Part shown: piece by piece, positions 25,823 through 50,057 of the stretch | How positions within the stretch are numbered: the stretch's first letter is position 1 | Layout of the letters: every line of letters begins with the position of its first letter | DNA from: Patescibacteria group bacterium | Lineage (GTDB): Bacteria > Patescibacteriota > Minisyncoccia > UBA6257 > 2-01-FULL-56-20 | Direction of reading: 5' to 3' | DNA length: 64,000 bases | NCBI GenBank assembly: GCA_024654525.1 | Contig: JANLHI010000030.1 | Location: forward strand, 80,437-144,436 | Program-made: the position numbers and the translations under genes | Notes under the pieces: generated by a model | Database searches by the model: none | What the model was told of the DNA's origin: nothing | What the model saw: the letters and a program-made list of their open reading frames with translations, nothing else

Positions 25823-25895
25823 GCCTCGCTAGCTCAATTGGCAGAGCAGCTCCCTCTTAAGGAGACGGTTGTAGGTTCAAGTCCTACGCGAGGCA
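25823..25895 (+). tRNA. tRNA-Lys (anticodon CTT)
   Basis: Cloverleaf folded by hand: 7-bp acceptor stem, D stem gctc/gagc, anticodon loop cTCTTaa with U33 and A37, T loop TTCAAGT. Confidence 0.8.
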
Positions 25896-25950
25896 CCGGC
25901 GGTGTTGTGATAATACGTACCGCAGTTGTAGGATTTGTTTAGGAGATATG

Positions 25951-26024
25951 GCCCCCATAGCTTAGTGGCAAAGCAGCTGCCTTTTAAGCAGTTGATCTAG
26001 GTCCGATTCCTAGTGGGGGCACCA
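25951..26024 (+). tRNA. tRNA-Lys (anticodon TTT), with encoded CCA
   Basis: Acceptor gcccccA/tgggggc, anticodon stem gctgc/gcagt, loop cTTTTaa, T arm ctagg-tccgatt-cctag, 3' end ...gcACCA. Confidence 0.8.
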
Positions 26025-27765: not shown

Positions 27766-28662
27766 ATGCTTAATATTGTAGAAAATAGAAAAATATATTT
27801 TGCCATTTCCGCTCTCACCGTGGGGGTGGCAATTATGGCAATATCCGTATACGGGTTTAAGGAGGGTATTGATTTTCGAGGAGGAACATTATGGCAATTC
27901 AGTATTTCGGAACACACACCCGCGACTGCCGCGCTTGAAGCACGCATGAAGAATGTATTGTCTCTTGACGAGCTCAAGATGAATCGCAATGCCGAGGGAG
28001 GATTCCTTGCTCGTTTCAATTCCATTTCTGAGAGCCAACATCAAACTTTTCTTACGACGCTTAAAAACGACTATCCCACATTTGAAGAGCTGAGTTTTTC
28101 TTCTATAGGTCCCTCGGTGGGGGAGGAGTTGCGACAAAAAGCTTTTATCGCAATGATTCTTGTGTTGATTGGTATTTCGCTCTATATCGCGCATGCATTT
28201 CGGAAAGCATCATATCCGGTAAGTTCTTGGAAATATGGATGGGTAACGCTCCTCACTCTTTTTCATGATGTGGCGATCCCCGCGGGTTTACTCGCATATC
28301 TTGGAAAACATTATGGCGTTGAAATTGACGGGAATTTCGTAGTCGCATTGCTCGTGGTAGTGGGATTCTCGGTGCACGACACAATCGTGGTATTCGATCG
28401 AATACGTGAAAATGTGGTGCTTCGTGGGCACAAGGAAAATTTCAATATTGTGGTGAACGACAGCGTAAATCAAACTCTTGCTCGTTCCATAAACACTTCT
28501 TTCACTCTTATTTTAGTTCTTCTCGCGCTGTATTTTTCAGGACCCGAGACTTTGCATTACTTTATTCTTACATTACTCGTGGGAGTTACTACCGGAATAT
28601 ACTCGTCTATTTTTATTGCCAGTCCACTCCTTATTTTCTTTCGTGGGAAAGGGCAAACTTGA
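27766..28662 (+). CDS. secF: protein translocase subunit SecF
   Basis: 298 aa; SecF TM topology with GIDFRGG; adjacent to secD. Confidence 0.9.
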   Translation: MLNIVENRKIYFAISALTVGVAIMAISVYGFKEGIDFRGGTLWQFSISEHTPATAALEARMKNVLSLDELKMNRNAEGGFLARFNSISESQHQTFLTTLKNDYPTFEELSFSSIGPSVGEELRQKAFIAMILVLIGISLYIAHAFRKASYPVSSWKYGWVTLLTLFHDVAIPAGLLAYLGKHYGVEIDGNFVVALLVVVGFSVHDTIVVFDRIRENVVLRGHKENFNIVVNDSVNQTLARSINTSFTLILVLLALYFSGPETLHYFILTLLVGVTTGIYSSIFIASPLLIFFRGKGQT

Positions 28663-28712
28663 CGAAATAGGGTATTATATTTTATAATGATTTCTATAGG
28701 TTTGACGATGCA

Positions 28713-29729
28713 ATGAAGGAATTACAAGACATTTTTAAATCTCTCACAAGTCGACAGCAGGAGGTAATTACTCGGCGTTTTGGCTTGGGGAAAACCGAAC
28801 CTGAAACACTTGCGGAGATAGGGGCGCGTTTTGGCATTACTCGTGAACGGGTAAGGCAGATTGAGAGTACTGCAATAAAACCTCTCGGAGACGCCATTCG
28901 AATACACCCCGTATGCAACAAACTCATACAATCCATTAATTCTTTTCTTGTCGATAATGGCGGTGTGGTACCCGCGGACCGATTTTTGTCGTATTGCGCG
29001 GATCAAAATGCGGGAGTGGGAGAACCTGATGTGGCGCTTCTTGCCGAGGCCACGCAAAATTTTTCTTTTTCCGCCGAAGATAGTAATTTCAACTCCTTTT
29101 ATTATTTGAACAAGGAAAGTTTCAGGCTTGCAAAGTCGTTTATCGATGCATGGGTAAAAATAATTTCTGGGAAGAAGAGCGTGGTGCTTGCGGGGCATTA
29201 TTCCCGAGAATTGCAATCTTTCATCGAGGAAAAGAAAATGTTTGTAGCGCACGCCGAAAACTATTTGGCTATTTCGAAAAAGATTCACCATTCACCATAT
29301 GGCGATGTTGGATTGGCAGAGTGGCCTGAGATAAAGCCTCAGACAATCCGAGACCGAATTTATCTTGTGCTCAGTAAAGAAGGAAAACCTGCTCATTTTC
29401 GGACTATCGCCGACCGAATTACTGCTGCAAATTTTGATACTAAGGCGGCGCTTGCGGCAACGGTGCATAACGAATTAATAAAAGACCCGCGTTTTGTCCT
29501 TGTGGGAAGGGGAATGTATGCTCTTAAAGAGTATGGCTACGAATCCGGTACTGCACGGGATGTAATTAAGAAAATTCTTGCGCAGGAGGGAGCACTTTAT
29601 CCGAAGGATGTGATTTTAGCAGCTCAGAAAAAGTGGTTTTTTAAAGAGAATACCATTTTGGTAAATCTTCAAAATCGTTCTCATTTTGAGCGTCGCTCGG
29701 ATGGACGCTATCAAGTGCGCGAAGCATAG
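28713..29729 (+). CDS. sigma-70 region-4 HTH domain protein with a C-terminal HARE-HTH-like domain
   Basis: N-terminus LTSRQQEVITRRFGL...TLAEIGARFGITRERVRQIE is sigma70_r4-like; C-terminus HFRTIADRI...DPRFVLVGRGMYALKEYGY is HARE-HTH-like. Confidence 0.5.
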   Translation: MKELQDIFKSLTSRQQEVITRRFGLGKTEPETLAEIGARFGITRERVRQIESTAIKPLGDAIRIHPVCNKLIQSINSFLVDNGGVVPADRFLSYCADQNAGVGEPDVALLAEATQNFSFSAEDSNFNSFYYLNKESFRLAKSFIDAWVKIISGKKSVVLAGHYSRELQSFIEEKKMFVAHAENYLAISKKIHHSPYGDVGLAEWPEIKPQTIRDRIYLVLSKEGKPAHFRTIADRITAANFDTKAALAATVHNELIKDPRFVLVGRGMYALKEYGYESGTARDVIKKILAQEGALYPKDVILAAQKKWFFKENTILVNLQNRSHFERRSDGRYQVREA

Positions 29730-29819
29730 GCGTGATATTGCTTTTGTTTTGAATTCCCGCTCTTAGGCGGTGTGTTGCGTGTTCTTGATGTGAGTAGGTT
29801 ATAATATTAAGGTCTTTAT

Positions 29820-31163
29820 ATGTTCGGAGATATTTTTAATATTATTGTCCACTTCCTTGATTTGAGTAAGTGGTTTATCGCCTTTTTTATTCTATGGCCG
29901 CTTTTTGAGTCCACGTGGATTGGATGGCGCCAATTTACCTACGAGCATTCGAGGGAATTCAGAATGGTGATGTTTGAAATGCGTATCCCGCGTGAAATCA
30001 GGAAGGGTCCTCGTGCCATGGAGCAGGTGCTTATGTCCTTATATTCTCTTCGCAATACCGCGGGTGATTTTCAAGAAACGTGGTGGGATGGTGAAATCAC
30101 GAAATGGTTTACGCTCGAAATTGTGAGTTTTGGGGGAGAGATAAAATTTTTTATCAGAGCATATTATAAGCAACGCCCACTTGTTGAAGCTGCGTTTTTT
30201 GCCCACTATCCGGATGTGGAATTGGTTGAAGTTGATGATTATATTGATCAGCTTCCTTCTGATTTAGATGATCTCTACTCGCGCGGATATGATGCATGGG
30301 GGTCGGAAATGGTACTCGCAAAGGAACCCGCATATCCCATCAGAACTTATCCTGACTTTGAGGCGCCTGACGAAGAACGCCAGCATGATCCAATTTCGTC
30401 GTTTCTTGAGGTATTGAGTAAGGCAAAAAAAGAAGAAACGATCGGTATACAAATCCTTATTGCTCCCGCAAGCGATGATTGGAATGAAAAATGGAAGGGA
30501 CTCATCGACAAGATGAAAGATGAATCTTCCAAACATATGGGGGGAAAAACAATAACGAATTTTCCAGGAGGTCCTCTTCCGGTATTTATATCTGAACACG
30601 AAGCTGAAAATCAATTCAAAGCGCTTTCCTTAAAACGTACGCCGGGGGAAACCGATGTGCTTGAAGCGATAGAGAATAATCTTTCGAAACCCGCGTTTGA
30701 GACTATTATTCGTTTCATGTATTTTTCGCCTAAACCGCTTTTTTACGACTCATTTGCACGTCGTGGTATCACGGGTATGTTCAACCAATACGCGGCGCTT
30801 GACTTGAATATGTTCAAGCAGAATTATTCGGTAAGCACGCGTGTGAAATTTTGGCATTGGCCTCATTTTTTCTACGATATTCGCGCCGAGTACAGGAAGG
30901 CAAGTTTGTTACATTGCTATCGCCACCGAATGATGCCCCATCATACTTTTATGGGAAAAATCCTGTATTCCCAGTTTTTTCGTTGGGATTTTGCCACAAA
31001 AACAATCACGCTCAACGTGGAGGCGCTTGCGACGTTGTTTCATCCGCCGACATTCCTCGTACTTACCGCACCTCATATTAAGAGGGTCGAGAGTAGAAAA
31101 ACGGGACCTCCTGCGGGATTGGCTATTTACGGAAATGAAAAAGAAATTGAGCGCTTTCAATGA
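29820..31163 (+). CDS. hypothetical protein (447 aa, N-terminal TM anchor)
   Basis: Long ORF with no recognisable family motif; immediately upstream of the 171-aa membrane protein and the VirD4/TraG-like ATPase. Confidence 0.5.
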   Translation: MFGDIFNIIVHFLDLSKWFIAFFILWPLFESTWIGWRQFTYEHSREFRMVMFEMRIPREIRKGPRAMEQVLMSLYSLRNTAGDFQETWWDGEITKWFTLEIVSFGGEIKFFIRAYYKQRPLVEAAFFAHYPDVELVEVDDYIDQLPSDLDDLYSRGYDAWGSEMVLAKEPAYPIRTYPDFEAPDEERQHDPISSFLEVLSKAKKEETIGIQILIAPASDDWNEKWKGLIDKMKDESSKHMGGKTITNFPGGPLPVFISEHEAENQFKALSLKRTPGETDVLEAIENNLSKPAFETIIRFMYFSPKPLFYDSFARRGITGMFNQYAALDLNMFKQNYSVSTRVKFWHWPHFFYDIRAEYRKASLLHCYRHRMMPHHTFMGKILYSQFFRWDFATKTITLNVEALATLFHPPTFLVLTAPHIKRVESRKTGPPAGLAIYGNEKEIERFQ

Positions 31164-31217
31164 TTTTTTCTTCAGTACCGATATGACAATGCATATAGTT
31201 AACCTCTCACAACTTCA

Positions 31218-31733
31218 ATGAATAACGGCGGACTAGATTTTTTCGGAACACACGAGTTTTGGATGTGGTTCTATTCCATACTCAATTTTATTTTTCTTGC
31301 GATAGATATTGCACTGTTTGTGGGATTTATATACGCGCTTATCCATGCATGGAAATATCGCCCCAAATTCAGATTGTCAAAAAAGACAAATGCCGGCGCT
31401 ATGGCGTTACGTATGGTGGTATTTAAGGAACGATGGGAAGAAGTTCTTAAGCGGATGGCGATTCAAACTTCGGATTCAATGAGGCTTGCGATACTTGAAG
31501 CAGACGCGCTGGTTGACTCAATACTCAAAGAACTTGGGTTCGAGGGCGATCATATGGCGGATCGCCTTGCAAAAATCACCCCCGAGAGTCTTTTATGCAT
31601 TGATCGCTTGTGGCGTGCACACCGGTTGAGAAATGAGCTTGTGCATACTCCCGATTATACAATCGAAACGGAAAAAGCTCAGCAAACGATTGAAGACTAT
31701 GAATCATTTATGAAAGAGATTAAAATATTGTAG
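31218..31733 (+). CDS. hypothetical membrane-anchored protein (171 aa)
   Basis: One N-terminal TM helix followed by a soluble helical domain; same orientation and tight spacing as its neighbours. Confidence 0.45.
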   Translation: MNNGGLDFFGTHEFWMWFYSILNFIFLAIDIALFVGFIYALIHAWKYRPKFRLSKKTNAGAMALRMVVFKERWEEVLKRMAIQTSDSMRLAILEADALVDSILKELGFEGDHMADRLAKITPESLLCIDRLWRAHRLRNELVHTPDYTIETEKAQQTIEDYESFMKEIKIL

Positions 31734-31751
31734 AACAAAAATCTTATTATT

Positions 31752-33200
31752 ATGTCGCGTCCAGGGAAAGTACAAATAATCAAATATGCCCCGCCTCCTC
31801 CGGAACTTCCCATCTATGGACAGGCGGATCCAAAGGAATGTTCCTTCATCGGGAGAACGAACTACGTTGCGGCGCTTGAGGAAAAAAAGTTTATTTTCGG
31901 TATTAACCGAAAAGACCGTCGGCGCCACCTTTATATTGTGGGGAAGAGCGGCGTGGGAAAAACAAAACTGCTTGAGCTTATGATTCGTCAAGATATCGCC
32001 CATAATCATGGGCTTTGTCTTATTGATCCTCACGGAGATGTGGTTGACGCAACTATTGATTTCGTGCCGGAAAATCGCATAGAGGACGTGGTAATTATCG
32101 ATCCAACCGATTTCGAATATCCCGCATCGTTCAACCCACTTGCGAATGTCGATCCTAATTTCAAGCACCAATTGACTCAAGGGCTTATCGAGGTCATGGA
32201 GAAACAATTTGGCGCGAACTGGACTCCTCGGCTTGAACACGTATTCCGTTTTACCGTGCTGGCATTACTTGATTATCCCCACGCTACCATGCGAGGGATG
32301 ATTTCGATGTTAACCGATCGAAACTATAGGCAAAAAGTCGTGGAGTATATCGAGGATGATATGGTAAAACGCTTTTGGGCTATTGAATTTGCGGATTGGT
32401 CGGAAAAGTTCGATACCGACGCTATTATTCCGCTTGTCAACAAGTTGGGGCAATTTTTGTCGGACCCGATGCTTCGGAATATTTTCGGACAGAAGGAAAA
32501 CAAAATACGACTTGAAGATCTTATTAACCAAAAGAAAATTATTCTTATCAATCTTTCAAAGGGAAGACTTGGAGAAGAAAATTCAAGTTTTTTTGGCTCC
32601 ATGTTCATCACAAAGATCAAACAGGCGGGTATGGCACGTGCAGGCCTCCCGGAGAAAGATCGGCACGATTTTTATCTGTATGTGGATGAGTTTCAAAATG
32701 TGGTTACCGAGACATTTGAAAATATTCTTTCTGAGGCGAGGAAGTACGGATTGTGCCTCACGGTTGCACACCAATACATGGGACAGCTTTTGCCTCGAGT
32801 ACAAGCGGCGGTACTTGGTAATGTGGGAAGTATTGTGATCTTTCGTGTCGGAGGTGACGATGCGGTAACACTCAAGCCGGAAATGGCTCCGGTGTTTGAC
32901 GTGAAAGATATGATTAATCTTGGCGTGAGAGAATTCTACATCAAGCTTATGATTGACGGAGAATCCTATGATCCTTTTTCCGCGGAAACACTTGCGGTAC
33001 TTGATCCCCCTCATCGGTCATTCCGTAAAGAGATTATTCAACGTTCACGCGAAAAATACGCGATTCCCGCTGATTCTGCGAAAAAGCTTATTGCCGAAGA
33101 GGAATCGACAATTCTTCGAAGCGCTCAAGAGAAGGCTATTATCGAAGGAAAGTCACCCAAAAACACAGAAGTGGAGAAGGTGGCGGAACCGCTGATATAA
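31752..33200 (+). CDS. VirD4/TraG/TraD-family P-loop NTPase (type IV secretion coupling-protein-like, soluble)
   Basis: Walker A YIVGKSGVGKT, LIDPHGD, Walker B LYVDEFQN, VAHQ; no predicted TM segment. Confidence 0.55.
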   Translation: MSRPGKVQIIKYAPPPPELPIYGQADPKECSFIGRTNYVAALEEKKFIFGINRKDRRRHLYIVGKSGVGKTKLLELMIRQDIAHNHGLCLIDPHGDVVDATIDFVPENRIEDVVIIDPTDFEYPASFNPLANVDPNFKHQLTQGLIEVMEKQFGANWTPRLEHVFRFTVLALLDYPHATMRGMISMLTDRNYRQKVVEYIEDDMVKRFWAIEFADWSEKFDTDAIIPLVNKLGQFLSDPMLRNIFGQKENKIRLEDLINQKKIILINLSKGRLGEENSSFFGSMFITKIKQAGMARAGLPEKDRHDFYLYVDEFQNVVTETFENILSEARKYGLCLTVAHQYMGQLLPRVQAAVLGNVGSIVIFRVGGDDAVTLKPEMAPVFDVKDMINLGVREFYIKLMIDGESYDPFSAETLAVLDPPHRSFRKEIIQRSREKYAIPADSAKKLIAEEESTILRSAQEKAIIEGKSPKNTEVEKVAEPLI

Positions 33201-33219
33201 GCAGGCCACACTTTTCCGA

Positions 33220-33729
33220 CTAGTGGTGTCCGCCTCCTCCAAACTTAGGGAACTCTTTTGTGGGCGGGGAAACTATGTTGTGTACGAAAATACCGAATGC
33301 AAGTCCCAATACGAGAGAAAGCAGGAATTCGTTGAATGTGCGGATGAAGAGGTAGTGAAATAACGAATAGAAAATAAAAAAACTTGCACCAAGTATGCCC
33401 CATCCTTTAAGACGAATTGGGATTATTTTTTTACCTCCGGAAAAAATGAGGTATGCAAGAATGGCGCTCGAAAAAGCAAGCCATAAATCAAATCCTTTAT
33501 AAATTGGACCTTCTGGAAAGCTTGTCTTTAAAAATACTCCGATTTGATACACCACAATGATGATAAAAAGAATAAATCCCGCCATAAATCCTGCTTGACC
33601 TGAATCATTTGCTCTGCTATCTGACGATTTCTGAGCGTGCGAATAAGTACTCCAAAGCGCGGACCCGAGAAGAGAGGGGACGAGTATCCACACAATCGCA
33701 TCAAAAATAGGTTTGAGGGCGTATTCCAT
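33220..33729 (-). CDS. hypothetical membrane protein (169 aa)
   Basis: Four to five predicted TM helices; convergent with the upstream ATPase gene. Confidence 0.45.
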   Translation of the reverse strand: MEYALKPIFDAIVWILVPSLLGSALWSTYSHAQKSSDSRANDSGQAGFMAGFILFIIIVVYQIGVFLKTSFPEGPIYKGFDLWLAFSSAILAYLIFSGGKKIIPIRLKGWGILGASFFIFYSLFHYLFIRTFNEFLLSLVLGLAFGIFVHNIVSPPTKEFPKFGGGGHH

Positions 33730-33814: not shown

Positions 33815-34480
33815 ATGGACGAAATCATTAACGCGTACGATTTAAAAAATCCCGAGGTTGCGCTTCCCATGTCGCGTGCAAAGTTTTACGAAGATCAAAT
33901 CGCGGCATATAAATCAGGGGTAGCTCCCACCGCTGCGGTGGAAATAATAGACATTTTTCTTTTTACCGGGGATAAAGAACTTTTTATCCAAAAACGTTCG
34001 TTTCATAAAGCACACAATCCTGGACTTTTTGATAAAGCCGTAGGCGGGCATGTGCGGCATGGCGATACACCTGATTTCAGCGCCATGGTGGAAACAGTGC
34101 AAGAGCTTCAGACCCCTTCGATTGTATTAAGGAATCAAACCGATTTTATAAAAACGTTGAGTTTACTCAAAGAATATCTTGATACTGTCGCAGTACTTAT
34201 GCATGTGGGCACCGAAATTGCTCCGATACAAAAAATTTTTTCGGGAGAATCTATTCCGATTGCAAACAAGATTCAGTTATATTTCGGAATTTATAACGGA
34301 AGAACTCGATCTGCCGACCATGAAGCGAAGGGGGTTTTGCATTATACGTTTGATGAGTTGCAACAGGAAATGGAAAAATTTCCTGCCGCTTTTACCGATG
34401 ATATACATTTTCTTTTTGGAAAATACAAGAAAGAAATGATTGCATTTCTTGAATCAAGCGAGAAAATTCTCGGAGTATGA
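33815..34480 (+). CDS. NUDIX-like domain protein (divergent Nudix box)
   Basis: GGHVRHGDTPDFSAMVETVQELQ aligns with the Nudix box GX5EX7REUXEEXGU, but several catalytic Glu/Arg residues are replaced; the ORF-track start at 33791 is also possible. Confidence 0.35.
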   Translation: MDEIINAYDLKNPEVALPMSRAKFYEDQIAAYKSGVAPTAAVEIIDIFLFTGDKELFIQKRSFHKAHNPGLFDKAVGGHVRHGDTPDFSAMVETVQELQTPSIVLRNQTDFIKTLSLLKEYLDTVAVLMHVGTEIAPIQKIFSGESIPIANKIQLYFGIYNGRTRSADHEAKGVLHYTFDELQQEMEKFPAAFTDDIHFLFGKYKKEMIAFLESSEKILGV

Positions 34481-36180
34481 GTGATTTTAAAACAAAAAAT
34501 TGCTCCCAGTGCGCATTTTCATTTGCAATCACCGCGGAAGATAGCATTTGGTACAACAAATTTGACGTATGCGATCCGAAGCTGTGTCCGCGATGCCGCG
34601 CCCAGCGGCGGCTCGCATTTCGCAACGAGCGCTCGTTTTATAAGCGTCCATGCGACAAATGCAAAAGGGATGTGGTTTCAATGTATAGTCCGAATAAGCC
34701 CTATGCGGTATGGTGTCATGATTGTTGGTTCGCGGATGATTGGGACCCGAAGGATTTTGGGAAAGACTATAATCCTTCGCAACCCTTTTTTGAGCAAGTC
34801 GAGAATATTTGGAGGCAAGTGCCAAAAGTCGCGCTGATTCACGTGCGAAGCGTGAATTGCGAGTACTTGAACGTATGCGCGGACAATAAAAACTGCTATA
34901 TGATAGTGGAATCTTCGAATAACGAGGATTCGATTCATTGTTATTGGATTCAAAAAACGCGGGGGTGTGTGGATACTTCATTCTCCCATGAATGCGAGCG
35001 GTGCTATGAGTCCGATGATATCTATAACTGCTATCAGGTGCGTTACAGCAAAGGATGTCACGATTGCCGCGATGCATATTTTCTTTTTGATTGTCGGAAT
35101 TGTTCGGATTGCATCGGATGCGTAAATCTTCGCAATAAACGATATTGCATTTTCAACAAACAGGTGACCAAAGAAGAATATCGGAAGTTTTTAGATGAGG
35201 CTCGGCTTGATACTCATACCGGAGTGGAGAAAATACAAACACAATTTGAAAAATTCAAAGCGACACAGCCGCACAAATATGCCGAAGCGGTGAATACCGT
35301 GAATTGTACGGGGAATTATTTGAAGGATGCGAAAAACTGTATTGATTGCTTTCATACCTACGAAGCCGAAGATTGTAAATATGCACTACATGCATGGCGG
35401 GATGCGAAGGATTGCGTGGATACGGATACTACCGGCAGGGGAGTGCAAATGGTCTACAACTCGCATAACACGGGAATTAATGCTTCAAATTGCATCTGTT
35501 GCGCGCAGTGCTGGGGAAGCATGCTTCTTGAATATTGCTCGCACTGTCACGATTCGCAAAATTGTTTCGGCTCCACCGGATTACGAAAGGCGAAGTATTG
35601 CATCCTGAATAAACAATATTCCGAAGAAGAATATAAAAAACTCAAGGCACAAATTGTCGAGCGTATGAAGCGGGATGAAATATACGGAGAGTTCTTTCCT
35701 CCGTCATCAAGTGCATTCGGGTACAACGAAGCGTGCGTACAGGAGCAATTCCCGCTCACCAAAGAAAACGCGCTGGCACAAGGGTTCAAATGGGAATATC
35801 ATCCGCGCGGCACCTATGGAAAGGAAACGGTGGATTGGGGAGAGATTTCGGATTCAATCCGTGACTTCACAACCGAAGATATCAATAAAGACATCTTTGC
35901 CTGCACCGCATGCAAAAAGAATTATCGCATTATTCCCGACGAACTCGCGTTGTACCGCAAACTCGAAATTCCTCTCCCGCGCGTGTGCCCCGACTGCCGC
36001 CATGCGCGGAGATTCGTCGCGCGCGGGCCTAATCGCCTGCGAACCGAATCATGCAAGTGTACCGTGGCTCACCATGCGCATGGTGATGCTGGTTGTTCAA
36101 TTACATTCAAAACTGCGTATCCGAAAGAATGGAATTTTCTTTTATACTGCGAAGCCTGCTATAACGCAGAAGTGGCGTGA
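34477..36180 (+). CDS. Cys-rich multi-zinc-ribbon protein (paralog 1; 567 aa, about 9% Cys)
   Basis: N- and C-terminal CxxC...CxxC ribbon modules (LCPRCRAQRRLAFRNERSFYK; NYRIIPDELALYRKLEIPLPRVCPDCRHARRF) and a central run of NCxDCxGC-type repeats; paralogous to 38197..39867. Confidence 0.6.
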   Translation: MSDFKTKNCSQCAFSFAITAEDSIWYNKFDVCDPKLCPRCRAQRRLAFRNERSFYKRPCDKCKRDVVSMYSPNKPYAVWCHDCWFADDWDPKDFGKDYNPSQPFFEQVENIWRQVPKVALIHVRSVNCEYLNVCADNKNCYMIVESSNNEDSIHCYWIQKTRGCVDTSFSHECERCYESDDIYNCYQVRYSKGCHDCRDAYFLFDCRNCSDCIGCVNLRNKRYCIFNKQVTKEEYRKFLDEARLDTHTGVEKIQTQFEKFKATQPHKYAEAVNTVNCTGNYLKDAKNCIDCFHTYEAEDCKYALHAWRDAKDCVDTDTTGRGVQMVYNSHNTGINASNCICCAQCWGSMLLEYCSHCHDSQNCFGSTGLRKAKYCILNKQYSEEEYKKLKAQIVERMKRDEIYGEFFPPSSSAFGYNEACVQEQFPLTKENALAQGFKWEYHPRGTYGKETVDWGEISDSIRDFTTEDINKDIFACTACKKNYRIIPDELALYRKLEIPLPRVCPDCRHARRFVARGPNRLRTESCKCTVAHHAHGDAGCSITFKTAYPKEWNFLLYCEACYNAEVA

Positions 36181-38196: not shown

Positions 38197-39867
38197 ATGA
38201 TGGGCGCGCAAAAACACTGTCGTATATGCAATACCGGATTTGAAATCGATTCTTCTGATCTTTCCTTTTATGAAAAAATGGGAGTACCTTCTCCGATGCT
38301 TTGTCCGATATGTCGTTTCCGCCGACGTGCCGTATTTCGCAATGAGCGGACCCTGTATAAGCAGGCATGCCGACTTTGTGGGGAATCCGCAATTACGATG
38401 TTTAATCCGAAAGAATCTCATATTGTGTATTGCAATGATTGTTGGTGGTCCGATAAATGGGATGCCCGAGAATATGCGCAAGGGTACGATGAAAGAAAAC
38501 CATTTTTAGAACAATTAAATGAACTTGCAAAAAAAGTCCCGAAAGTGGCGACCTATTCGACTGCCGCACTTGGCCCCAATATCAACAGCGAATATTCGAA
38601 CTTTGCCGGAGGTAATAAGGATTGCTATCTTTGTTTTAACTCGGGACCGCGGAATGAGAATTGCGGATATTCACGGGGAATGATCCAGTGCCGTGACACC
38701 TTTGATGTTTACTTTGCTCAAGAATCGGAACGTCTTTACGAAGGCGTGAATGTTCAAAAGAGTACGGGAATTGCGTGGGGTCAAAATACCCTGGAATGCC
38801 TTGATTCGTGGTTTCTCTTGAACTGTGCAAGTCTTCAGAATTGCTTCGGATGTGTTAATTTAAGGCATAAATCCTTCTATTTTTTAAATGAGCCACTCTC
38901 TAAAGAAGAGTGGACTCGAAAAGTTGGAGAAATTGCGGGAAGCTATCGTAAACTGCAAGAATTCAAAAAAATATTCGAGACGCATGCGAAAGCATTCCCT
39001 CGTCGCGAAAATAGTAATTTAAAATCAGTAGACTGCACGGGGGATTATATTTTTGCATCGAAAAATTGTCGGAACTCTTTTGAAGTGGCGAATGGAGAAG
39101 ATCTTCGGTATGTATTTTCGATAAAATTCGCAAAAGATTGTTATGACATTATGGGACATGGAAGAAATTCGGAACTTCTTCTTGAAGGAGTGGGGGTGGG
39201 AGTTTGTCAGCGAATAATTACCGGATGGTTTGTCGAAAATTCACATGACGTAGAGTATTGCCTTGCGGTAAGAGGCAGTGAAGATTGTTTTGGATGTGTG
39301 GGACTGAAAAATGGAAAGTATTCTATTTTAAATAAGCAATATATCGAAGAAGAATATAAGGAATTGCGGAACAAAATTATTGAAGAATTGAAGAAAGAAG
39401 GGGAGTATGGGCACTTTTTCCCGCCTTCTATGGCTTTTTTTGCCTATAACGAAACTGTTGGTCAAGACAATCTTCCTCTTTCAAAGGAAGATGCAATAAT
39501 GCATGGATTTCGTTGGGAAGAGGACATCCCCACGATGAAAGGACGGGAGACTATGAAGTCAGAACAGATTCCCGATCATATTAACGATGTACCGGATTCA
39601 ATACTGCATGAAATCCTTGCATGTATTTCATGTGGAAGAAATTACCGTCTTATAAAGCCGGAGTTGGAAGTATACCGGCATGCATTGATTCCGATTCCAC
39701 GCGAATGTTTCAATTGTAGGCATCTTGACAGACTTCGCCGAAGAGGATTGTTTGCGCTTTTCAACAGAGAGTGCGCGAAGTGCACAAAAAATATTACAAC
39801 AAATTATTCTCCCGACCGTCCGGAGACGGTGTATTGCGAGGGTTGTTATCAAAGTGAAGTAGTTTAA
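38197..39867 (+). CDS. Cys-rich multi-zinc-ribbon protein (paralog 2; 556 aa)
   Basis: Same architecture and many identical blocks as 34477..36180 (LCPICRFRRRAVFRNERTLYK, NCFGCVNLRHK, ILNKQYIEEEYKEL, YGHFFPPS, NYRLIKPELEVYRHALIPIPRECFNCRH). Confidence 0.6.
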   Translation: MMGAQKHCRICNTGFEIDSSDLSFYEKMGVPSPMLCPICRFRRRAVFRNERTLYKQACRLCGESAITMFNPKESHIVYCNDCWWSDKWDAREYAQGYDERKPFLEQLNELAKKVPKVATYSTAALGPNINSEYSNFAGGNKDCYLCFNSGPRNENCGYSRGMIQCRDTFDVYFAQESERLYEGVNVQKSTGIAWGQNTLECLDSWFLLNCASLQNCFGCVNLRHKSFYFLNEPLSKEEWTRKVGEIAGSYRKLQEFKKIFETHAKAFPRRENSNLKSVDCTGDYIFASKNCRNSFEVANGEDLRYVFSIKFAKDCYDIMGHGRNSELLLEGVGVGVCQRIITGWFVENSHDVEYCLAVRGSEDCFGCVGLKNGKYSILNKQYIEEEYKELRNKIIEELKKEGEYGHFFPPSMAFFAYNETVGQDNLPLSKEDAIMHGFRWEEDIPTMKGRETMKSEQIPDHINDVPDSILHEILACISCGRNYRLIKPELEVYRHALIPIPRECFNCRHLDRLRRRGLFALFNRECAKCTKNITTNYSPDRPETVYCEGCYQSEVV

Positions 39868-43991: not shown

Positions 43992-44390
43992 ATGCGCATA
44001 ATCGACGCAAAAAAACACATCGTGATAGGAGCGGCGCTTTTGGCAAATAGTATATTTTTTACGGGTATTTTTTATACATCGGCAGCACCACCACAAACAA
44101 TTCCGCTGATTGATGGCGGCTCTCTTCAAAAATTGCCGGATCCTATCCGGAATTTTATTCAATCCGGCATTAATTTAAATAACTCCGTCTCGCAGTGGAC
44201 TCCTCCTCTTGCGCTTTCCGGCAGGGGAGAGCGAATTAGCAATGCGGCCCAAGGTATTTTGAGATCTGCGATTTCAGTGGTAATTACCGCTATCAGTTGG
44301 ATTATTGTGGTGGCAACACAGGCAATAATGATTGTGGCGGGAATCACCATACACATCATTCATTGGATTATCGAAGCGGTACGATTGTGA
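43992..44390 (+). CDS. hypothetical small membrane protein
   Basis: 132 aa; an N-terminal and a C-terminal TM helix. Confidence 0.4.
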   Translation: MRIIDAKKHIVIGAALLANSIFFTGIFYTSAAPPQTIPLIDGGSLQKLPDPIRNFIQSGINLNNSVSQWTPPLALSGRGERISNAAQGILRSAISVVITAISWIIVVATQAIMIVAGITIHIIHWIIEAVRL

Positions 44391-44403
44391 TAATTATTGA
44401 TTT

Positions 44404-45081
44404 ATGGAAAAAGAAATTATTTTCGAGAATACGCGTTATGAACGAATTCCTATTCGGACGCACAAAATAAAATTCGGAGAATCGATTATATCGGTACTCG
44501 AAACGTATCTTCCGGCAATTGTTAAGCCGGGAGATTGGCTTGCAATCTCCGAAAAGCTAATCTCGGTTTCTCAGAATAACATCCGACATATTTCCACCGT
44601 ACACGCGGGGATGCTTGCGCGTTTCATTGTGAAGGGAGTTAAAAAATATCCGAACGATGTCGGTTTTTCCCGCCCTGAAAAAATGCAGCTTGTTGTGGAA
44701 TATGCAGGCGTCGTGAGAACTTTTTTTGCGATGAGTATAGGCGCTCTGGGAAAGCTTTTAGGTATAAGGGGAGTCTTTTGGGTGCTTGTCGGATCTCGCG
44801 CGGGAGAAATAGACGGATTTAATCCCGATGCAATGGATCCGTATAAGGACCACGCCGTATTACCTCCGAAAAATCCTGAAAAAGTATGCGCCGACATAGA
44901 ATCTCGGTTCAATATTCCCACAACAATTATCGACGGCAATAATATTAATGTAAAAATAATTTCAATGAGCCCTAAAATGCCGGTCGATAAAAAAAATGCA
45001 CGGCTGTTGTTATTGGATAATCCCATGGGTCAAGACGATGAGATGACACCATTCGTATTGGTAAGGAAGTTACAGGAATAA
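44404..45081 (+). CDS. CofE-like (F420-0:gamma-glutamyl ligase family) domain protein
   Basis: VKPGDWLAISEKLISVSQNNI resembles the CofE/F420-ligase fold motif. Confidence 0.45.
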   Translation: MEKEIIFENTRYERIPIRTHKIKFGESIISVLETYLPAIVKPGDWLAISEKLISVSQNNIRHISTVHAGMLARFIVKGVKKYPNDVGFSRPEKMQLVVEYAGVVRTFFAMSIGALGKLLGIRGVFWVLVGSRAGEIDGFNPDAMDPYKDHAVLPPKNPEKVCADIESRFNIPTTIIDGNNINVKIISMSPKMPVDKKNARLLLLDNPMGQDDEMTPFVLVRKLQE

Positions 45082-45177
45082 GTGCCTACCTACCTGCGCG
45101 AATATATGTACTGTCGTGAAATCTACCTTGTGCGACAGATAGAATTATAAAATAACCCCGGTAAACACTACCTCCCC

Positions 45178-45735
45178 ATGCTTCCCCTAGGACATATTGC
45201 GACAGGATACCTTGTCGGACGCATCGTATCTTTTTATGCGAACGCTCCTTCGGAATATGCGGATTTATTTGTCTTTGGCGGAATTATTGCCGGTACAATA
45301 CCCGATATCGATTTTATTCCTTTTTTTATCAAACATCGAGCTCTGAAGCTTGTCCGAGGTTCTTCTCATCGGAATTATATTACTCATACGCCTGTGTTAT
45401 GGTTCATCCTTGGGCTATGTATCTATTTCTTGAATTATGACAGTCCTGTGCGTTATTTCGGTATTATTCTTTGGTTAGGAACATGGAGTCATTTTCTCGG
45501 TGATTCTCTCGAGTATGGGATTCGCTGGCTGTGGCCTTTTACTAATACATACTATTCCGTTTACCCCAACCCTTCTGCGCCGAAATTAAGCGAAATTGCG
45601 GCTTCCATTCATAGTCCCGAGGGCAGTATCCCCTTTTATTTTGAGTATTTACGCGTGGTATATTTCAAGAGTCGCGTATGTTGGCTTGAATGTTCCGTAA
45701 TAATAATCGCTCTATTTTTCTTTTTTTATATATGA
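45178..45735 (+). CDS. membrane-bound metal-dependent hydrolase (DUF457/YdjM-like)
   Basis: 185 aa; GHIATGYL...PDID...NYITHTPV and the WSHFLGDSLEYGIRW pattern typical of DUF457. Confidence 0.45.
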   Translation: MLPLGHIATGYLVGRIVSFYANAPSEYADLFVFGGIIAGTIPDIDFIPFFIKHRALKLVRGSSHRNYITHTPVLWFILGLCIYFLNYDSPVRYFGIILWLGTWSHFLGDSLEYGIRWLWPFTNTYYSVYPNPSAPKLSEIAASIHSPEGSIPFYFEYLRVVYFKSRVCWLECSVIIIALFFFFYI

Positions 45736-47144
45736 AAGAGCGTGTCCATCTTATTGGCATAGGAGGAATCGGTATGAGCGCGTTGGCACGTTGGTTTTGC
45801 GCTCATAGCTGGCAAGTTTCCGGATCGGATATTACCGCAACCGATATTACCAACACACTCCGTGATGAAGGTATAAAAGTTTTAATAGGGTGCTCTTCAA
45901 AAAACATATCCGCGGCAGTCTCACTCGTAATCACGAGTCAGGCGATATCTTCTTCTAATCCCGAGGTAATAGCCGCATCAAAGTTCAAAATCCCCGTCCT
46001 TAGCTATCCTGAGATGCTCGGAGCTATCACTCGTGCGAGTACTACAATCGCAATAGCGGGATCGCATGGTAAGAGTACCACTACCGCGCTCACATCCCTT
46101 ATCTTTATGTATGCAAAAAGAAATCCTACGGTTATCGTAGGGACATTACTAAAGGAGTTTGGAAATTTAAACTTTCATGCAGGATCCGAGCAACTACTCA
46201 TCATGGAAGCCGATGAGTACGGAAAAGCATTTTTTCATTATTCTCCGACTATTGTGGCGGTTACTAACATAGACCGGGAACACCTTGATATTTACCCCAC
46301 AATGCAAAGTGCTCAACGCGCATTCCTTACCTTTCTTTCCCACACCAAACCCGGCGGTACATTGGTACTCAATCGCGACAATCCTCCGCTCTACACCCTT
46401 TCCCACGCTATTCAAAAATTGTCAAAAAAAAATAATCTCACGTTATATTGGTATTCGCTTCATGATGCGATAGCAAAAGAGGTGAGAAAACATATGACTG
46501 TTGTTGGAGAGCATAATATCTCAAACGCTCTTGCGGCTTTCGTGATTGCTACGCGCGTCGCCGGAATTTCCAAAAAAGATGCGCTCCGCGCACTTTCGCT
46601 ATACCAAGGGACGTGGCGCAGAATGGAATACCGAGGAGATTTGAACATGGGACATGGAATAGGGAACAGAAAGGTATTAAAAAATCGTGTCCCAAATTCC
46701 CAATTCCCGATTCGGGTATTTGATGACTATGCCCACCATCCCACTGAAATCAAAGCGACTCTTGATGCATTTCGCGCGCAATACCCAAACTCCCCTCTTG
46801 TCTGTGTATTTCAACCGCATCAAACATTGCGTCTTCGTAAACTTTTCAAAGAATTTATCGCGGCAGTTTCAGGTGCGGACGCACTCGTGCTTCTTCCTGC
46901 ATATCAAGTTTCCGGCAGAGACAAAAACGATCTGCGTTTTACCTCAAAGACTCTTGCGGTCGCAATCCAAGAACAACATCCCGACATGCCGGTGACGTAT
47001 GTTTCTCATCGAAAAAGAATTAAACAGGCAATACTCTCGATTATGCATCTATTACCGCCCGCTACTTCGCATAAAGATTCACCCACCGTTGTCATGATGG
47101 GTGCCGGAGATATAGTGAATTGCACCAAAACATTACTCATATAA
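45732..47144 (+). CDS. murC: UDP-N-acetylmuramate--L-alanine ligase MurC
   Basis: VHLIGIGGIGMSALA, IAGSHGKSTTT and the Mur ligase domains; the start was set at the internal ATG (ATGA overlap with the upstream gene). Confidence 0.85.
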   Translation: MKERVHLIGIGGIGMSALARWFCAHSWQVSGSDITATDITNTLRDEGIKVLIGCSSKNISAAVSLVITSQAISSSNPEVIAASKFKIPVLSYPEMLGAITRASTTIAIAGSHGKSTTTALTSLIFMYAKRNPTVIVGTLLKEFGNLNFHAGSEQLLIMEADEYGKAFFHYSPTIVAVTNIDREHLDIYPTMQSAQRAFLTFLSHTKPGGTLVLNRDNPPLYTLSHAIQKLSKKNNLTLYWYSLHDAIAKEVRKHMTVVGEHNISNALAAFVIATRVAGISKKDALRALSLYQGTWRRMEYRGDLNMGHGIGNRKVLKNRVPNSQFPIRVFDDYAHHPTEIKATLDAFRAQYPNSPLVCVFQPHQTLRLRKLFKEFIAAVSGADALVLLPAYQVSGRDKNDLRFTSKTLAVAIQEQHPDMPVTYVSHRKRIKQAILSIMHLLPPATSHKDSPTVVMMGAGDIVNCTKTLLI

Positions 47145-47168
47145 TCGCGTATACTACGCAAATATACA

Positions 47169-47957
47169 ATGTCGGATTACTATAGAAACGAGGGAGAATT
47201 TAAAGAAGCATGTGGTTATACAATTGATGGAAAATGGTTTCCACGCGTCACAAAGATTGTATCAATTAAAGCGAAGCCGGCATTGCTTCGCTTCTACGCG
47301 GAAGCGGAAAGTTTTGATGCCGCGCAAAGTATTACGCAAAAATCGGCGGAAGAAGGTACGCTGATTCATGAAGCGGTGGAGAATATTTTTCTTGGGAAAA
47401 GCCAAGAAATTCCGGAGTCTATTCGTCCCGCGGTAAATTCCTTTCTTGAGTTCTTAGATACGAAAAGCATCCGTGTTGCGCCTGATTTGGTAGAAAGACG
47501 CGTGGTGCATTATGGACACCGCTACGCCGGCACCGTGGATGCGCTTGCGCTTATTGATGGGAAGTTTGGAGTATTGGATATTAAAACTTCACAAGACATC
47601 TATCGTGATTATAATCTTCAGACTTCCGCCTATATGGATGCCCTTAAAGATACTTTTCCCAATCTCTCTACTCGATGGATATTGAGAATTGACCAAATTC
47701 AGACTTGCATAGTGTGCGATGCGATCCGACGCCTTAAGGGTGGGCGTGAAAAAATACGAATGCCAAAAGGCGCCAACGGCTTTACCATTCGCAAAGCGGG
47801 AATTCCGGAACACGCGCACGAGTGGTCCCCTCTTAAGGGAGTAATTGAACTCAAAGAATTTCCTTATTGGAAGAATGATTTTGAAGCATTTCTTGGTGCG
47901 AAACGCCTCTGGGAATGGGAAAATGAGTTGTGGCTGAAAAGGATACAGTATTCTTAA
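47169..47957 (+). CDS. PD-(D/E)xK nuclease superfamily protein (RecB/Cas4-like fold)
   Basis: YAGTVDALALIDGKFGVLDIKTS supplies the D...(D/E)xK catalytic motif; a CxxC cluster lies downstream. Confidence 0.5.
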   Translation: MSDYYRNEGEFKEACGYTIDGKWFPRVTKIVSIKAKPALLRFYAEAESFDAAQSITQKSAEEGTLIHEAVENIFLGKSQEIPESIRPAVNSFLEFLDTKSIRVAPDLVERRVVHYGHRYAGTVDALALIDGKFGVLDIKTSQDIYRDYNLQTSAYMDALKDTFPNLSTRWILRIDQIQTCIVCDAIRRLKGGREKIRMPKGANGFTIRKAGIPEHAHEWSPLKGVIELKEFPYWKNDFEAFLGAKRLWEWENELWLKRIQYS

Positions 47958-47964
47958 GAAAGGT

Positions 47965-49017
47965 TTGACCGCACTATCACATCCCGAATACAATAAGACA
48001 ATGAGCACCGAACGAATTACTATCCGGCGTAGTCCGGCGGTTCTTATACGCAATCTTGCGCTTATCGAGCTTGTCGCATTTATCCTCTATGTCGTTGCGG
48101 TAACACTTGGAAATTCTAAATATGAGCTCTATTTACAAATTCCTCTTCTTCCTGATATTTTCCCTTATCAAGCGCTTAAAATATTTGCGCTCTCCGGAAT
48201 CCAATTTGTCATTACCATTTATGCATTTCTAAGCTGGTACTACGAACATTATGTGGTCATACCAACGATGATTTCTCATGAGCGTGGCATATTTTTCAAA
48301 CAAAGTACCAACGTACCTTTCCGCGAGACGATGTCGGTGACTTTGGTCGAAGGACCCATACGAAAACTTCTCCACTGCGGGTCGCTCATTATACACAACT
48401 CGTCTTTGCCGATACTTACGCTTACCGATATCTCATATCCCAAAAAATATCTCGATATCATTCTTACTCGCCTTAACGGTTCTCATGCGTACACTATAGA
48501 ACCATCATCTCAACGAGTGGGAATCGCGGAAGATATATTACAATACGAAGAACATTCCAAGCTTGAATTTAAGTCTTCGTTGCGCTTTGATCACCATACA
48601 AAAAAAGTGAATCGCGAGCTTGAAAAAGTGACAATGAAAACCGTTGCGGCATTTTTAAACTCGGATGGCGGGCGATTGGTAATCGGAGTTGGAGATGATA
48701 AAAGTCCCCTTGGATTACACCATGACTACCAAACACTCGGACGGCAATCTGCGGATGGGTTTGAAAACCACTTCACTCAATTATTCAATAAGATGCTTGG
48801 TCCGGATATTCGCCACCTTGCACAACTCACGTTTCATAAAGTACAGGATAAGGATATTTGCATGGTAGACATCTCTCCAAGTCCGCGACCGGTATATCTT
48901 GCGACAGAGAACGATGAATTCTTTTATGTCCGCACCGGAAACATCAGCACCCCCCTTAAATTAAGTGAGGTGGAATCATACGCACGGGAACGTTGGCCTC
49001 ACGCTATGACGGGATGA
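47965..49017 (+). CDS. membrane-anchored bacterial-PH (YdbS/T-like) plus AlbA_2 (Schlafen-like putative nucleic-acid-binding) domain protein
   Basis: Two N-terminal TM helices, then a bPH-like segment, then LEFKSSLRFD...KTVAAFLNSDGGRLVIGVGDD matching the AlbA_2 core; an alternative start lies at 48001. Confidence 0.5.
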   Translation: MTALSHPEYNKTMSTERITIRRSPAVLIRNLALIELVAFILYVVAVTLGNSKYELYLQIPLLPDIFPYQALKIFALSGIQFVITIYAFLSWYYEHYVVIPTMISHERGIFFKQSTNVPFRETMSVTLVEGPIRKLLHCGSLIIHNSSLPILTLTDISYPKKYLDIILTRLNGSHAYTIEPSSQRVGIAEDILQYEEHSKLEFKSSLRFDHHTKKVNRELEKVTMKTVAAFLNSDGGRLVIGVGDDKSPLGLHHDYQTLGRQSADGFENHFTQLFNKMLGPDIRHLAQLTFHKVQDKDICMVDISPSPRPVYLATENDEFFYVRTGNISTPLKLSEVESYARERWPHAMTG

Positions 49018-49226
49018 ATTACCTTTGTTACTAAACTCAAACTTACTTATATTGGCTGGGGGAAGCCACATTGTTCGATTATAATCGGCGCATGTGTATA
49101 CTCACGATTTGCAAGGTATCCCAATCCAAAACTTATCGTTGCTACAAGAAACATAATCACTCCAAATCCAATTTCTTTGCGGTGTTCCTCACTCCAGTTT
49201 TTGAATCGATAGAACCACGTCATGAG

Positions 49227-49946
49227 TTAAAAACTAAGATACGTTTTCCACTTTTCATAAAGTTCCCGTGTTGCACGCAAATCCCCCACGTTATACTTCG
49301 CAATCTCTATAAATTTTTTTTCCTTGAAAAGCGGACCTACATCATCACCAGTTATTCCCGATACTTTCGGACTTTCGATACCGAATGCCCTTGTCCATAG
49401 ATGAAGACTTCCTTTTCTGCGCGTAGCTCCGTAAAAGGTAAGCTGTTCTAATATATCTATGTGAACCGCGTCCGGACTGTGCTGATAGAGATACCTTCCT
49501 CTCATTAAATCTTTAGTGGGGCGAATGCCATGAATCGCCGATCGGATAAGAAGAAACGGGATATCGAATGAGCGCCCGTTAAATGTCACAAATATCTGAC
49601 ACTTCCGTGCAACTTCCCAAAACTTCTCGAGCATCTCTTTTTCATCCATTGCCTTAAGCAATATTCCATCCTCTTTCGTCTCCTCGCACTTTACTCCCGG
49701 CGCCTGAAAATATACCACCCCTTCATTTTTATGATAATCAAGTATGCCAATCGCGACAATAGACCCGGTAAGTGGAGAAAAACCAAGTCCTGATTTTAAA
49801 TCTTCAAGCGCCGCTTGATATTCTTCTTCAGAATTTGCTTCCCTCTTAATCCAACGCGTAAGCGATTCTTGGGTTGCTTTGTCTAAAGAATCATAGTCCT
49901 CCCCTATTGTTTCTATGTCGAGAATAATGGTTTGCGAGTTTGACAT
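49227..49946 (-). CDS. 3'-5' exonuclease, RNase H-like superfamily (DnaQ/PolB-exo-like)
   Basis: IILDIETIG (Exo I motif), FNGRSFDIPFL and the YQHSPDAVHID motifs. Confidence 0.5.
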   Translation of the reverse strand: MSNSQTIILDIETIGEDYDSLDKATQESLTRWIKREANSEEEYQAALEDLKSGLGFSPLTGSIVAIGILDYHKNEGVVYFQAPGVKCEETKEDGILLKAMDEKEMLEKFWEVARKCQIFVTFNGRSFDIPFLLIRSAIHGIRPTKDLMRGRYLYQHSPDAVHIDILEQLTFYGATRRKGSLHLWTRAFGIESPKVSGITGDDVGPLFKEKKFIEIAKYNVGDLRATRELYEKWKTYLSF

Positions 49947-50057
49947 ATTAGAGATAATACCCTAAAATCTTTGGATTAGAAAACAGTGATTGGTTGAACC
50001 TTTGTATTTTACAGGTCCATTCTAATCTCTATTTTTTAATCTCTATTTTCTAATTCT

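Follow-up and report, generated by a model that had tools for sequence, protein, structure and literature searches.

In a 64,000-nucleotide (nt) stretch of the tiny genome of a Patescibacteria group bacterium (assembly GCA_024654525.1, contig JANLHI010000030.1, positions 80,437 to 144,436; hereafter the window), a conserved cassette of four genes, P1 to P4, was characterized. Two of its products, P2 and P4, appear to be the separated halves of a type IV coupling protein (T4CP) that other lineages encode as one polypeptide. The explanation that we consider somewhat more probable than improbable is that P2 and P4 form a split, Patescibacteria-type T4CP with HEPN and DNA-binding partners, feeding a type IV secretion system (T4SS) encoded elsewhere. 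In more general terms, the most likely role of the cassette is to handle nucleic acid on the cytoplasmic side of the membrane. P1 (28713–29729; 338 amino acids, aa) is a DNA-binding-type protein with Sigma70_r4 and HARE-HTH domains, and P2 (29820–31163; 447 aa) is a DUF8128 protein with an N-terminal transmembrane (TM) anchor and a presumably cytoplasmic alpha/beta domain. P3 (31218–31733; 171 aa) combines one TM helix with a predicted cytoplasmic HEPN domain, and P4 (31752–33200; 482 aa) is a soluble VirD4/TrwB-type P-loop ATPase. The open reading frames (ORFs) proposed by an earlier model that saw only the letters (the sequence-only reading) were all found at their coordinates, with P1–P4 on the plus strand. 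Judged by the large size of the P2 family and the conserved gene order, these four are far beyond chance ORFs. The sequences of P2 and P3 match NUV53_03680 and NUV53_03685, respectively, without a difference.

The gene order of the cassette is nearly invariant. A scan with one genome per species yielded 80 related loci. Every one of them belongs to Parcubacteria-type Patescibacteria, with Lipton-, Jorgensen-, Wolfe- and Brennerbacteria, Paceibacterota and Minisyncoccia among the record titles. P3 directly follows P2 in all 78 of 78 related loci and the ATPase gene directly follows P3 in 69 of 72, while P2 is immediately preceded by P1 in 68 of 74 and P1 by SecF in 56 of 63. The suspicion that this was a conserved locus, syntenic in relatives, is thus borne out by adjacency counts across 80 species. 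Median identities to the window proteins, over all related loci with a qualifying match, are 80% for P4, 62% for SecD, 55% for SecF, 52% for P2, 44% for P1 and 40% for P3, with P4 orthologs 75–94% identical. With 80% for P4 against 62% and 55% for SecD and SecF, the motor half is thus more strongly constrained than are the Sec components that these genomes encode. The best reading of these patterns is a chromosomal cassette whose inheritance looks vertical.

The spacer between SecF and P1 contains the top-scoring promoter-like site of the region (28659..28688, plus strand), composed of TTGACG, an 18-nt spacer and TATAAT and agreeing with the consensus at 11 of 12 positions. A TTGAC motif is present in this spacer in 58 of 58 related loci, usually followed, as judged by eye, by a TATAAT-like hexamer after approximately 17–19 nt. 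With a promoter motif conserved at this position, P1–P4 most likely form their own transcription unit, and the adjacency to SecDF may therefore be only positional. Another TTGACG, placed shortly ahead of the start codon of P1, was considered as an operator for P1 and rejected, since a second TTGAC occurs in only 17 of 58 spacers. Upstream of the cassette lie two tRNA-Lys genes and then SecD/SecF; the tRNA-Lys pair, with anticodons CTT and TTT, occupies 25823–26024, just upstream of secD.

Evidence for a split coupling protein comes from the relation of P2 and P4 to fused proteins. In PHROG 5156, a family of 824 positions, the N-terminal part matches P2 and the C-terminal part matches P4 (E 8e-55). 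Its member gp156 of Bacillus phage G (825 aa) carries PF26449 together with the ATPase, and was matched to the DUF8128 profile with an hhalign probability of 98.5%; its GenBank label, 'ATP-binding/permase; MsbA-like', was unsupported by the matches obtained. Furthermore, dozens of proteins of 725–1140 aa that join DUF8128 to TrwB_AAD_bind, DUF87 and TraG-D_C were found in other Patescibacteria, including Berkel-, Falkow-, Gottesman- and Saccharibacteria, and the P2 and P4 profiles match the two halves of these fused proteins in order. Sequence comparison thus indicates that a protein encoded elsewhere as one polypeptide is divided here into P2 and P4, and an Embleya plasmid protein of 812 aa is probably another one-polypeptide form. 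The earlier description of a free-standing ATPase consequently does not really hold, since the counterpart of the ATPase is joined to that of P2 in phage G and other Patescibacteria, and probably also in the Embleya protein.

Short motifs mark the same junction. The ELAxxxHxP motif, found in P2 as ELATLFHPP (aa 401–410; nt 31020–31049), stands 68–82 residues ahead of Walker A in the phage G and Embleya proteins. Additionally, a PPxxLxIYG motif occurs both at the C-terminus of P2 (PPAGLAIYG, aa 430–438; nt 31107–31133) and at the N-terminus of P4 (PPPPELPIYG, aa 14–23; 31791–31820), while fused relatives have a single PPxxLPI in the linker ahead of the ATPase domain. The pair has the look of a junction that was duplicated, or else of a short docking motif. 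Deeper split lineages, in which P2 is about 30% identical, show the order P1, DUF8128 and ATPase without P3. In a neighbour-joining tree, the short P4 clade is sister to 'long' ATPases of the candidate phyla radiation (CPR), which bear charged or CxxC-x17-CxxC tails and form a second copy in many of the 80 loci. The short P4 type and the long CxxC-tail type together fit the approximately two copies per genome given in a published census (PMC12102498). The longer paralogue of many related genomes (600–720 aa, about 42–45% identical to P4) carries a low-complexity tail besides a CxxC-x17-CxxC zinc ribbon and is often encoded less than 10 kb from the cassette, as at L009:8405-10339, L013:8921-10759 and L020:18805-20961 in three of the related loci; none is present in the window. 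In the deeper lineages, the ATPase adjoining DUF8128 is itself of the 'long' type.

On sequence evidence, P4 is a T4CP-like P-loop ATPase. The motifs quoted for it in the sequence-only reading were all located, namely Walker A (GKSGVGKT, aa 64–71), LIDPHGD (aa 90–96), Walker B (YLYVDEFQN, aa 308–316) and AHQ (aa 339–341); Walker A and Walker B, between which TrwB-type coupling proteins carry an all-alpha domain, are separated by about 240 residues, and a conserved EPLI lies at the C-terminus. Three T4CP-type Pfam families were matched above their gathering scores: PF10412 TrwB_AAD_bind (35.4 bits against 20.5; aa 54–366), PF02534 T4SS-DNA_transf (30.4 against 20.1) and PF12696 TraG-D_C (25.2 against 22). 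The generic DUF87 was also above its gathering score (6.9e-9). The top NCBIfam matches were the VirD4-like CD1115 family and TraD, and the VirB4, HerA and EccC models reached only 13–17 bits (VirB4-type, 15–17). A profile of P4 alone was weak against the PDB, and a narrow ortholog alignment compared by hhalign with single VirD4 and VirB4 sequences gave a probability of about 2% for each, so that a more diverse clade profile was needed. With a profile built from 18 diverse clade members, the ranking was TrwB (1.6e-11), DotL (3.1e-10), DptH (4e-9), HerA proteins (2.6e-8 to 5e-6), the FtsK/SpoIIIE-type ATPase 4nh0 (3e-4), VirB4 4ag5 (6.6e-4), the pCW3-type coupling protein 6o1w (6.5e-3) and FtsK (0.035). 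The Pfam gathering scores and the leading place of TrwB and DotL sustain the proposed VirD4/TraG likeness, and hydropathy, which detected no TM segment in P4, agrees with the earlier statement that the ATPase has no TM helices.

Other identities for the motor were considered. A HerA or FtsK identity was rejected on match ranking, the HerA and FtsK structures standing below TrwB and DotL; moreover, no NurA-type or other nuclease gene that could partner a HerA-type ATPase was found at the locus besides the HEPN protein. A VirB4-type motor was likewise rejected, as none of the VirB4-type ATPase domains (AAA_10, P-loop_TraG, CagE_TrbE_VirB) had a Pfam match in P4 and 4ag5 scored 6.6e-4 against 1.6e-11 for TrwB. 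Neither of the outcomes named in the sequence-only reading as refuting it, an FtsK/HerA or other non-T4CP classification and a lack of synteny in relatives, was thus observed.

The sequence-only reading had found no recognizable domains in the two membrane partners of the ATPase. This view is superseded by the assignment of P2 to DUF8128, with a VirB4-like fold, and of P3 to HEPN, while the claim that both are membrane-anchored was upheld by one hydropathy-detected TM segment in each. Membership of P2 in PF26449 (DUF8128) comes from precomputed annotations, a local Pfam scan of P2 being empty; the P2 family comprises 1532 representative clusters at E ≤ 1e-3. The TM segment of P2 spans approximately aa 8–36, and an AlphaFold2 model (predicted local distance difference test, pLDDT, 85; predicted template modeling score, pTM, 0.81) shows a long N-terminal helix followed by an alpha/beta domain. 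In a Foldseek search with this model, 14 TrwK chains ranked at the top, and TrwK alone matched at a high score. Because P2 has no Walker A motif and no other P-loop ATPase appeared among its fold matches, the modeled similarity would lie on the N-terminal domain that is specific to VirB4. Such N-terminal domains link VirB4 protomers into dimers, embed in the membrane and touch VirB3 and VirB8, according to a 2025 review (PMC12857230). Basic residues follow the TM helix in P2 as well as in P3, which by the positive-inside rule would place the large domains of both proteins in the cytoplasm.

P3 has 71 homologues and matches no Pfam family. Its model (pLDDT 89.8) shows a TM helix (aa 24–42) followed by a four-helix bundle with the HEPN fold at aa 59–167. 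In an alignment of 42 homologues, W132, A134, H135, R138 and N139 do not vary, and the conservation of H143 is at least 90%; the resulting RNxxxH motif (R138-N-E-L-V-H143; nt 31629–31646) agrees with the Rx4-6H pattern of HEPN proteins. Based on this motif and on the predicted TM helix and four-helix bundle, P3 can be described as a HEPN domain with a membrane anchor, and preservation of the motif suggests that it is competent as an RNase. A profile search of distant split and fused loci detected no HEPN, so far as these loci go, and P3 appears confined to the Parcubacteria-type lineage of the cassette.

The fourth component, P1, consists of an N-terminal sigma-70 region 4, a central region of unknown fold and a HARE-HTH domain at aa 211–273. 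The sigma70-r4/HARE-HTH assignment made from the letters was supported by Pfam (Sigma70_r4, E 2.8e-15; HARE-HTH, E 2.3e-5, slightly under the Pfam cutoff), and in the PDB an ortholog profile closely matched primary sigma factors in their region 4 (1e-18). P1 keeps TRERVRQIE at aa 43–51, which we take to correspond to the helix of sigma-70 region 4.2 responsible for reading the -35 element. Hydropathy indicated no TM segment in P1. It adjoins DUF8128 in the three deeper split lineages examined, in one of them without adjacent SecDF or ATPase, and was not adjacent to the fused forms in the neighbourhoods examined. We propose that P1 is a DNA-binding partner of the system, acting as a regulator or an adaptor.

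Links between this protein family and type IV secretion come from the fused relatives. On one Patescibacterial contig, the fused gene is divergent and adjoins genes for PrgI/VirB3-like, VirB4 (AAA_10, P-loop_TraG) and Peptidase_M23 proteins, and this locus sits beside dnaA/dnaN, the location described for the T4SS of the phylum. In phage G, the order over gp153–gp156 (L004:774-6338) is a TrbL/VirB6-like protein, a small protein, a VirB4-like ATPase of the CD1110 family and the DUF8128–VirD4-like fusion, and this jumbo phage thus appears, from these matches, to encode a T4SS-like module. The Embleya protein is encoded after PrgI and a CD1110-type VirB4 and before a replication-relaxation gene and an NlpC/P60 gene; the match of its N-terminus to DUF8128 is tentative (hhalign 50%, E 1.7e-4). 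Other fused copies lie in housekeeping contexts.

For the physical complex, its stoichiometry, its coupling to a T4SS, its substrate and any RNase activity, we infer the following arrangement. P2 would supply the membrane anchor and the DUF8128 domain, with its fold resembling the VirB4 N-terminal domain, and P4 the VirD4/TrwB-like motor domain. In known family members, VirD4/TrwB-like motors work as hexamers. Rings of P4 may accordingly be pictured as docking on membrane-tethered P2 at the cytoplasmic face, which would rebuild the single polypeptide of other lineages. By analogy with the contacts of the VirB4 N-terminal domain with VirB3 and VirB8, DUF8128 would join the motor to the inner-membrane platform of a Patescibacterial T4SS encoded elsewhere. 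P3, a membrane-anchored HEPN protein particular to this lineage, would have been inserted where the coupling protein is split; with its RNxxxH motif retained, it would most likely either cut RNA at the motor as an endoribonuclease or serve as a dimeric adaptor, as VBP does for VirD4. P1 may act as regulator of the operon or as a substrate adaptor.

Several observations weigh against such a split coupling protein serving a distant T4SS. P4 falls under the curated cutoff of every NCBIfam T4CP model that it matches (52 bits against 250–366), and its conservation, exceeding that of SecD and SecF, is unusual for a coupling protein. Comparison of the DUF8128 profile with a single Agrobacterium VirB4 sequence by hhalign gave no signal, and the relationship is therefore structural only. 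Ten large ORFs of the window compared with Pfam were all housekeeping or other non-T4SS genes, including DnaK, DnaB, CysRS, GltX, a Mur ligase and ABC-F. Phmmer searches with few reference queries, hence of limited sensitivity, detected no VirB4, VirB6, VirB3 or VirB8 homologue in the window or within 10 kb of the locus in the 80 related genomes; the earlier remark that T4SS genes are missing nearby held to that extent. Among 3026 assemblies, the published census counts 5713 T4CP homologues, spread over 2918 genomes, against a smaller number of assemblies (2407) with Patescibacteria-clade VirB4; just 148 of the 5713 lie near virB4. In Southlakia, the T4CP homologue is non-essential while the T4SS genes are essential, and the authors leave exaptation open (PMC12102498).

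Much of this would suit an exapted, T4SS-independent housekeeping machine, in which the tethered motor moves or remodels nucleic acid, probably RNA, the HEPN protein cuts and P1 regulates; such a machine would be an RNA-processing or RNA-salvage complex. The identity of P4 across species (about 80%, against 62% for SecD), the core chromosomal context with no T4SS genes close by in 80 species, the surplus of T4CP homologues over VirB4 in the census and the exaptation raised by its authors (PMC12102498) all speak for it, as do the HEPN fold of P3 with its conserved RNxxxH motif and the charged or CxxC zinc-ribbon tails of other CPR paralogues, which look nucleic-acid-binding. However, one fused relative adjoins VirB3/VirB4, and the non-CPR relatives lie in T4SS-like modules. 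The HEPN gene is also missing from the deeper split lineages, implying that RNA cleavage is not the ancestral core function, and no RNA-binding domain was detected in P2 or P4. We regard this machine as a tentative possibility. A separate and more novel reading, in which P2–P3–P4 form the inner-membrane end of a route for feeding on host RNA, seems unlikely to us. Here the RNA of the host would come in by way of the Patescibacterial T4SS or its tube-like structures, the coupling-protein-like motor would reel it in, the anchored HEPN RNase would cut it, and PNPase-based salvage would follow. A cultivated member of the phylum does take up host RNA by a mechanism stated to be unresolved (2026 preprint, 10.64898/2026.06.21.733656), and the extreme conservation of P4 in a lineage mostly without nucleotide synthesis would fit a core role of this kind.

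The scarcity of nucleotide synthesis in Patescibacteria would speak for a DNA-uptake or competence motor, the idea raised in the sequence-only reading, with the ATPase pulling DNA through ComEC or a T4SS, as in ComB or Ced, and P1 binding DNA. P4 has weak NCBIfam matches to CedD, a DNA-translocating ATPase, and P1 has two DNA-binding-type domains. Nevertheless, no competence genes were found beside the cassette in the window or in the neighbour-annotated loci, and the HEPN partner indicates RNA over DNA. The known T4SS-derived importers also use VirB4-type rather than VirD4-type ATPases, and we judge DNA uptake quite improbable. Very much less probable is an anti-phage defence or toxin–antitoxin module that pairs a HEPN toxin with a HerA-like ATPase. 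The HEPN fold with its catalytic-type motif would suit it, and PADLOC returned weak single-protein matches (mad8, 2e-11; CARF_HEPN, 1.7e-4; the sigma region of MzaA), those of P4 being to mad8, HerA and DndH and that of P1 to MzaA. The defence reading was rejected on context: the neighbours are constant, with SecDF upstream in most of the 80 species, inheritance looks vertical and purifying selection is very strong, while no mobile-element or defence-island genes were seen around the cassette and no PADLOC match was strong.

Compared with known systems, the putative split coupling protein resembles VirD4, TrwB and DotL in its FtsK/HerA-superfamily P-loop with TrwB_AAD_bind and TraG-D_C, TrwB and DotL being its best PDB matches, in its predicted tethering at the cytoplasmic membrane face and in its putative auxiliary proteins, comparable to the DotL coupling complex (PMC12857230). 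It differs from them in that P4 lacks a TM domain of its own and would be anchored in trans by P2 through a VirB4-like domain; no relaxase or T4SS genes adjoin P4, such linkage holding only for fused relatives; and P4 is a chromosomal core gene, about 80% conserved, that stays below the NCBIfam T4CP cutoffs. The fold of P2 and the order of N-terminal domain followed by ATPase recall VirB4 (TrwK). A separately encoded protein related to the VirB4 N-terminal domain, TrsD, has been described for Patescibacterial T4SS loci (PMC12102498). Unlike in VirB4 or TrsD, the partner ATPase here is VirD4-like, P2 has no sequence similarity to Agrobacterium VirB4, and no VirB3 gene is adjacent. The gp156 and Embleya proteins share with the cassette an N-terminal extension followed by a VirD4-like ATPase, the extension being clearly DUF8128 in gp156 and tentatively so in Embleya, as well as the ELAxxxHxP motif of P2. 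In contrast to P2 and P4, they are fused, follow a VirB4-like CD1110 ATPase and have no HEPN gene and no P1; their surroundings hold a TrbL/VirB6-like gene in phage G, and PrgI, a relaxase-like gene and NlpC/P60 in Embleya. P3 finds a parallel in Agrobacterium VBP, which has a HEPN dimerization domain, binds VirD4, VirB4 and VirB11 and recruits the T-complex (PMC3953389). Both are HEPN-fold proteins that work, in the case of P3 putatively, with T4SS ATPases; VBP is soluble and has a nucleotidyltransferase domain, whereas P3 is membrane-anchored and minimal and keeps the RNxxxH of the HEPN-RNase kind.

Orphan T4CP homologues in Patescibacteria are already known (Microb Genom 2025, PMC12102498), and the window locus very probably belongs to that published set. 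The passages of that paper found by targeted terms do not mention the N-terminal DUF8128 domain or its VirB4-like fold, the split form, the partners with HEPN and sigma-r4/HARE-HTH domains, or how strongly the genes are conserved, and a full-text literature search for DUF8128 returned no paper. The domain architecture and the split thus appear to be undescribed so far, as do the HEPN insert, the P1 partner and the level of conservation. T4CP homologues occur in approximately 96% of Patescibacteria assemblies, and the cassette offers concrete handles on their role in the VirB4-like N-terminal domain, the Parcubacteria split with its HEPN insert and a motor half that evolves more slowly than SecD. 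Moreover, the combination of a VirD4-type motor with a VirB4-type N-terminal domain bears on the kinship of the two T4SS ATPases. The operon is also a testable candidate for how epibiont Patescibacteria obtain host nucleic acids.

Several minor observations concern the surroundings of the cassette. The span 28713–33729 given in the sequence-only reading holds as a conserved unit for P1–P4 but not for P5 (33220–33729, minus strand; 169 aa), which is convergent with P4 and is conserved beside the cassette in only 8 of 80 loci. P5 has several hydrophobic segments, probably four TM helices, and a weak NCBIfam match to a family of F1-like-ATPase-associated membrane proteins (E 0.0034). In one Jorgensenbacteria genome (L035/L003:2186-2437), a small GIY-YIG gene of 83 aa lies between the HEPN and ATPase genes and may have entered this otherwise fixed operon in the manner of a homing endonuclease. 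Tandem arrays of Cys-rich proteins of about 560 aa without a Pfam match, here called the P7 family, include window copies at 34477–36180 and 38197–39867 on the plus strand. Of 45 loci, 36 have a full-length copy less than 3 kb downstream of P4, the commonest flank count being four. The copy at 38197–39867 has a borderline match to a CxxC-x17-CxxC zinc ribbon (TIGR04272; 34 bits, cutoff 36), beyond which P7 had no match in the PDB or the family libraries; this zinc-ribbon domain recurs as the C-terminal tail of the long ATPase paralogue (47 bits). P7-family proteins could be clients or partners of the motor. Further downstream, at approximately 44000–50000, the GC skew flips sign, with a cumulative maximum near 46 kb; large ORFs are mostly on the plus strand before about 46 kb and more mixed after it, and this change may mark a replication terminus or origin or a rearrangement point.

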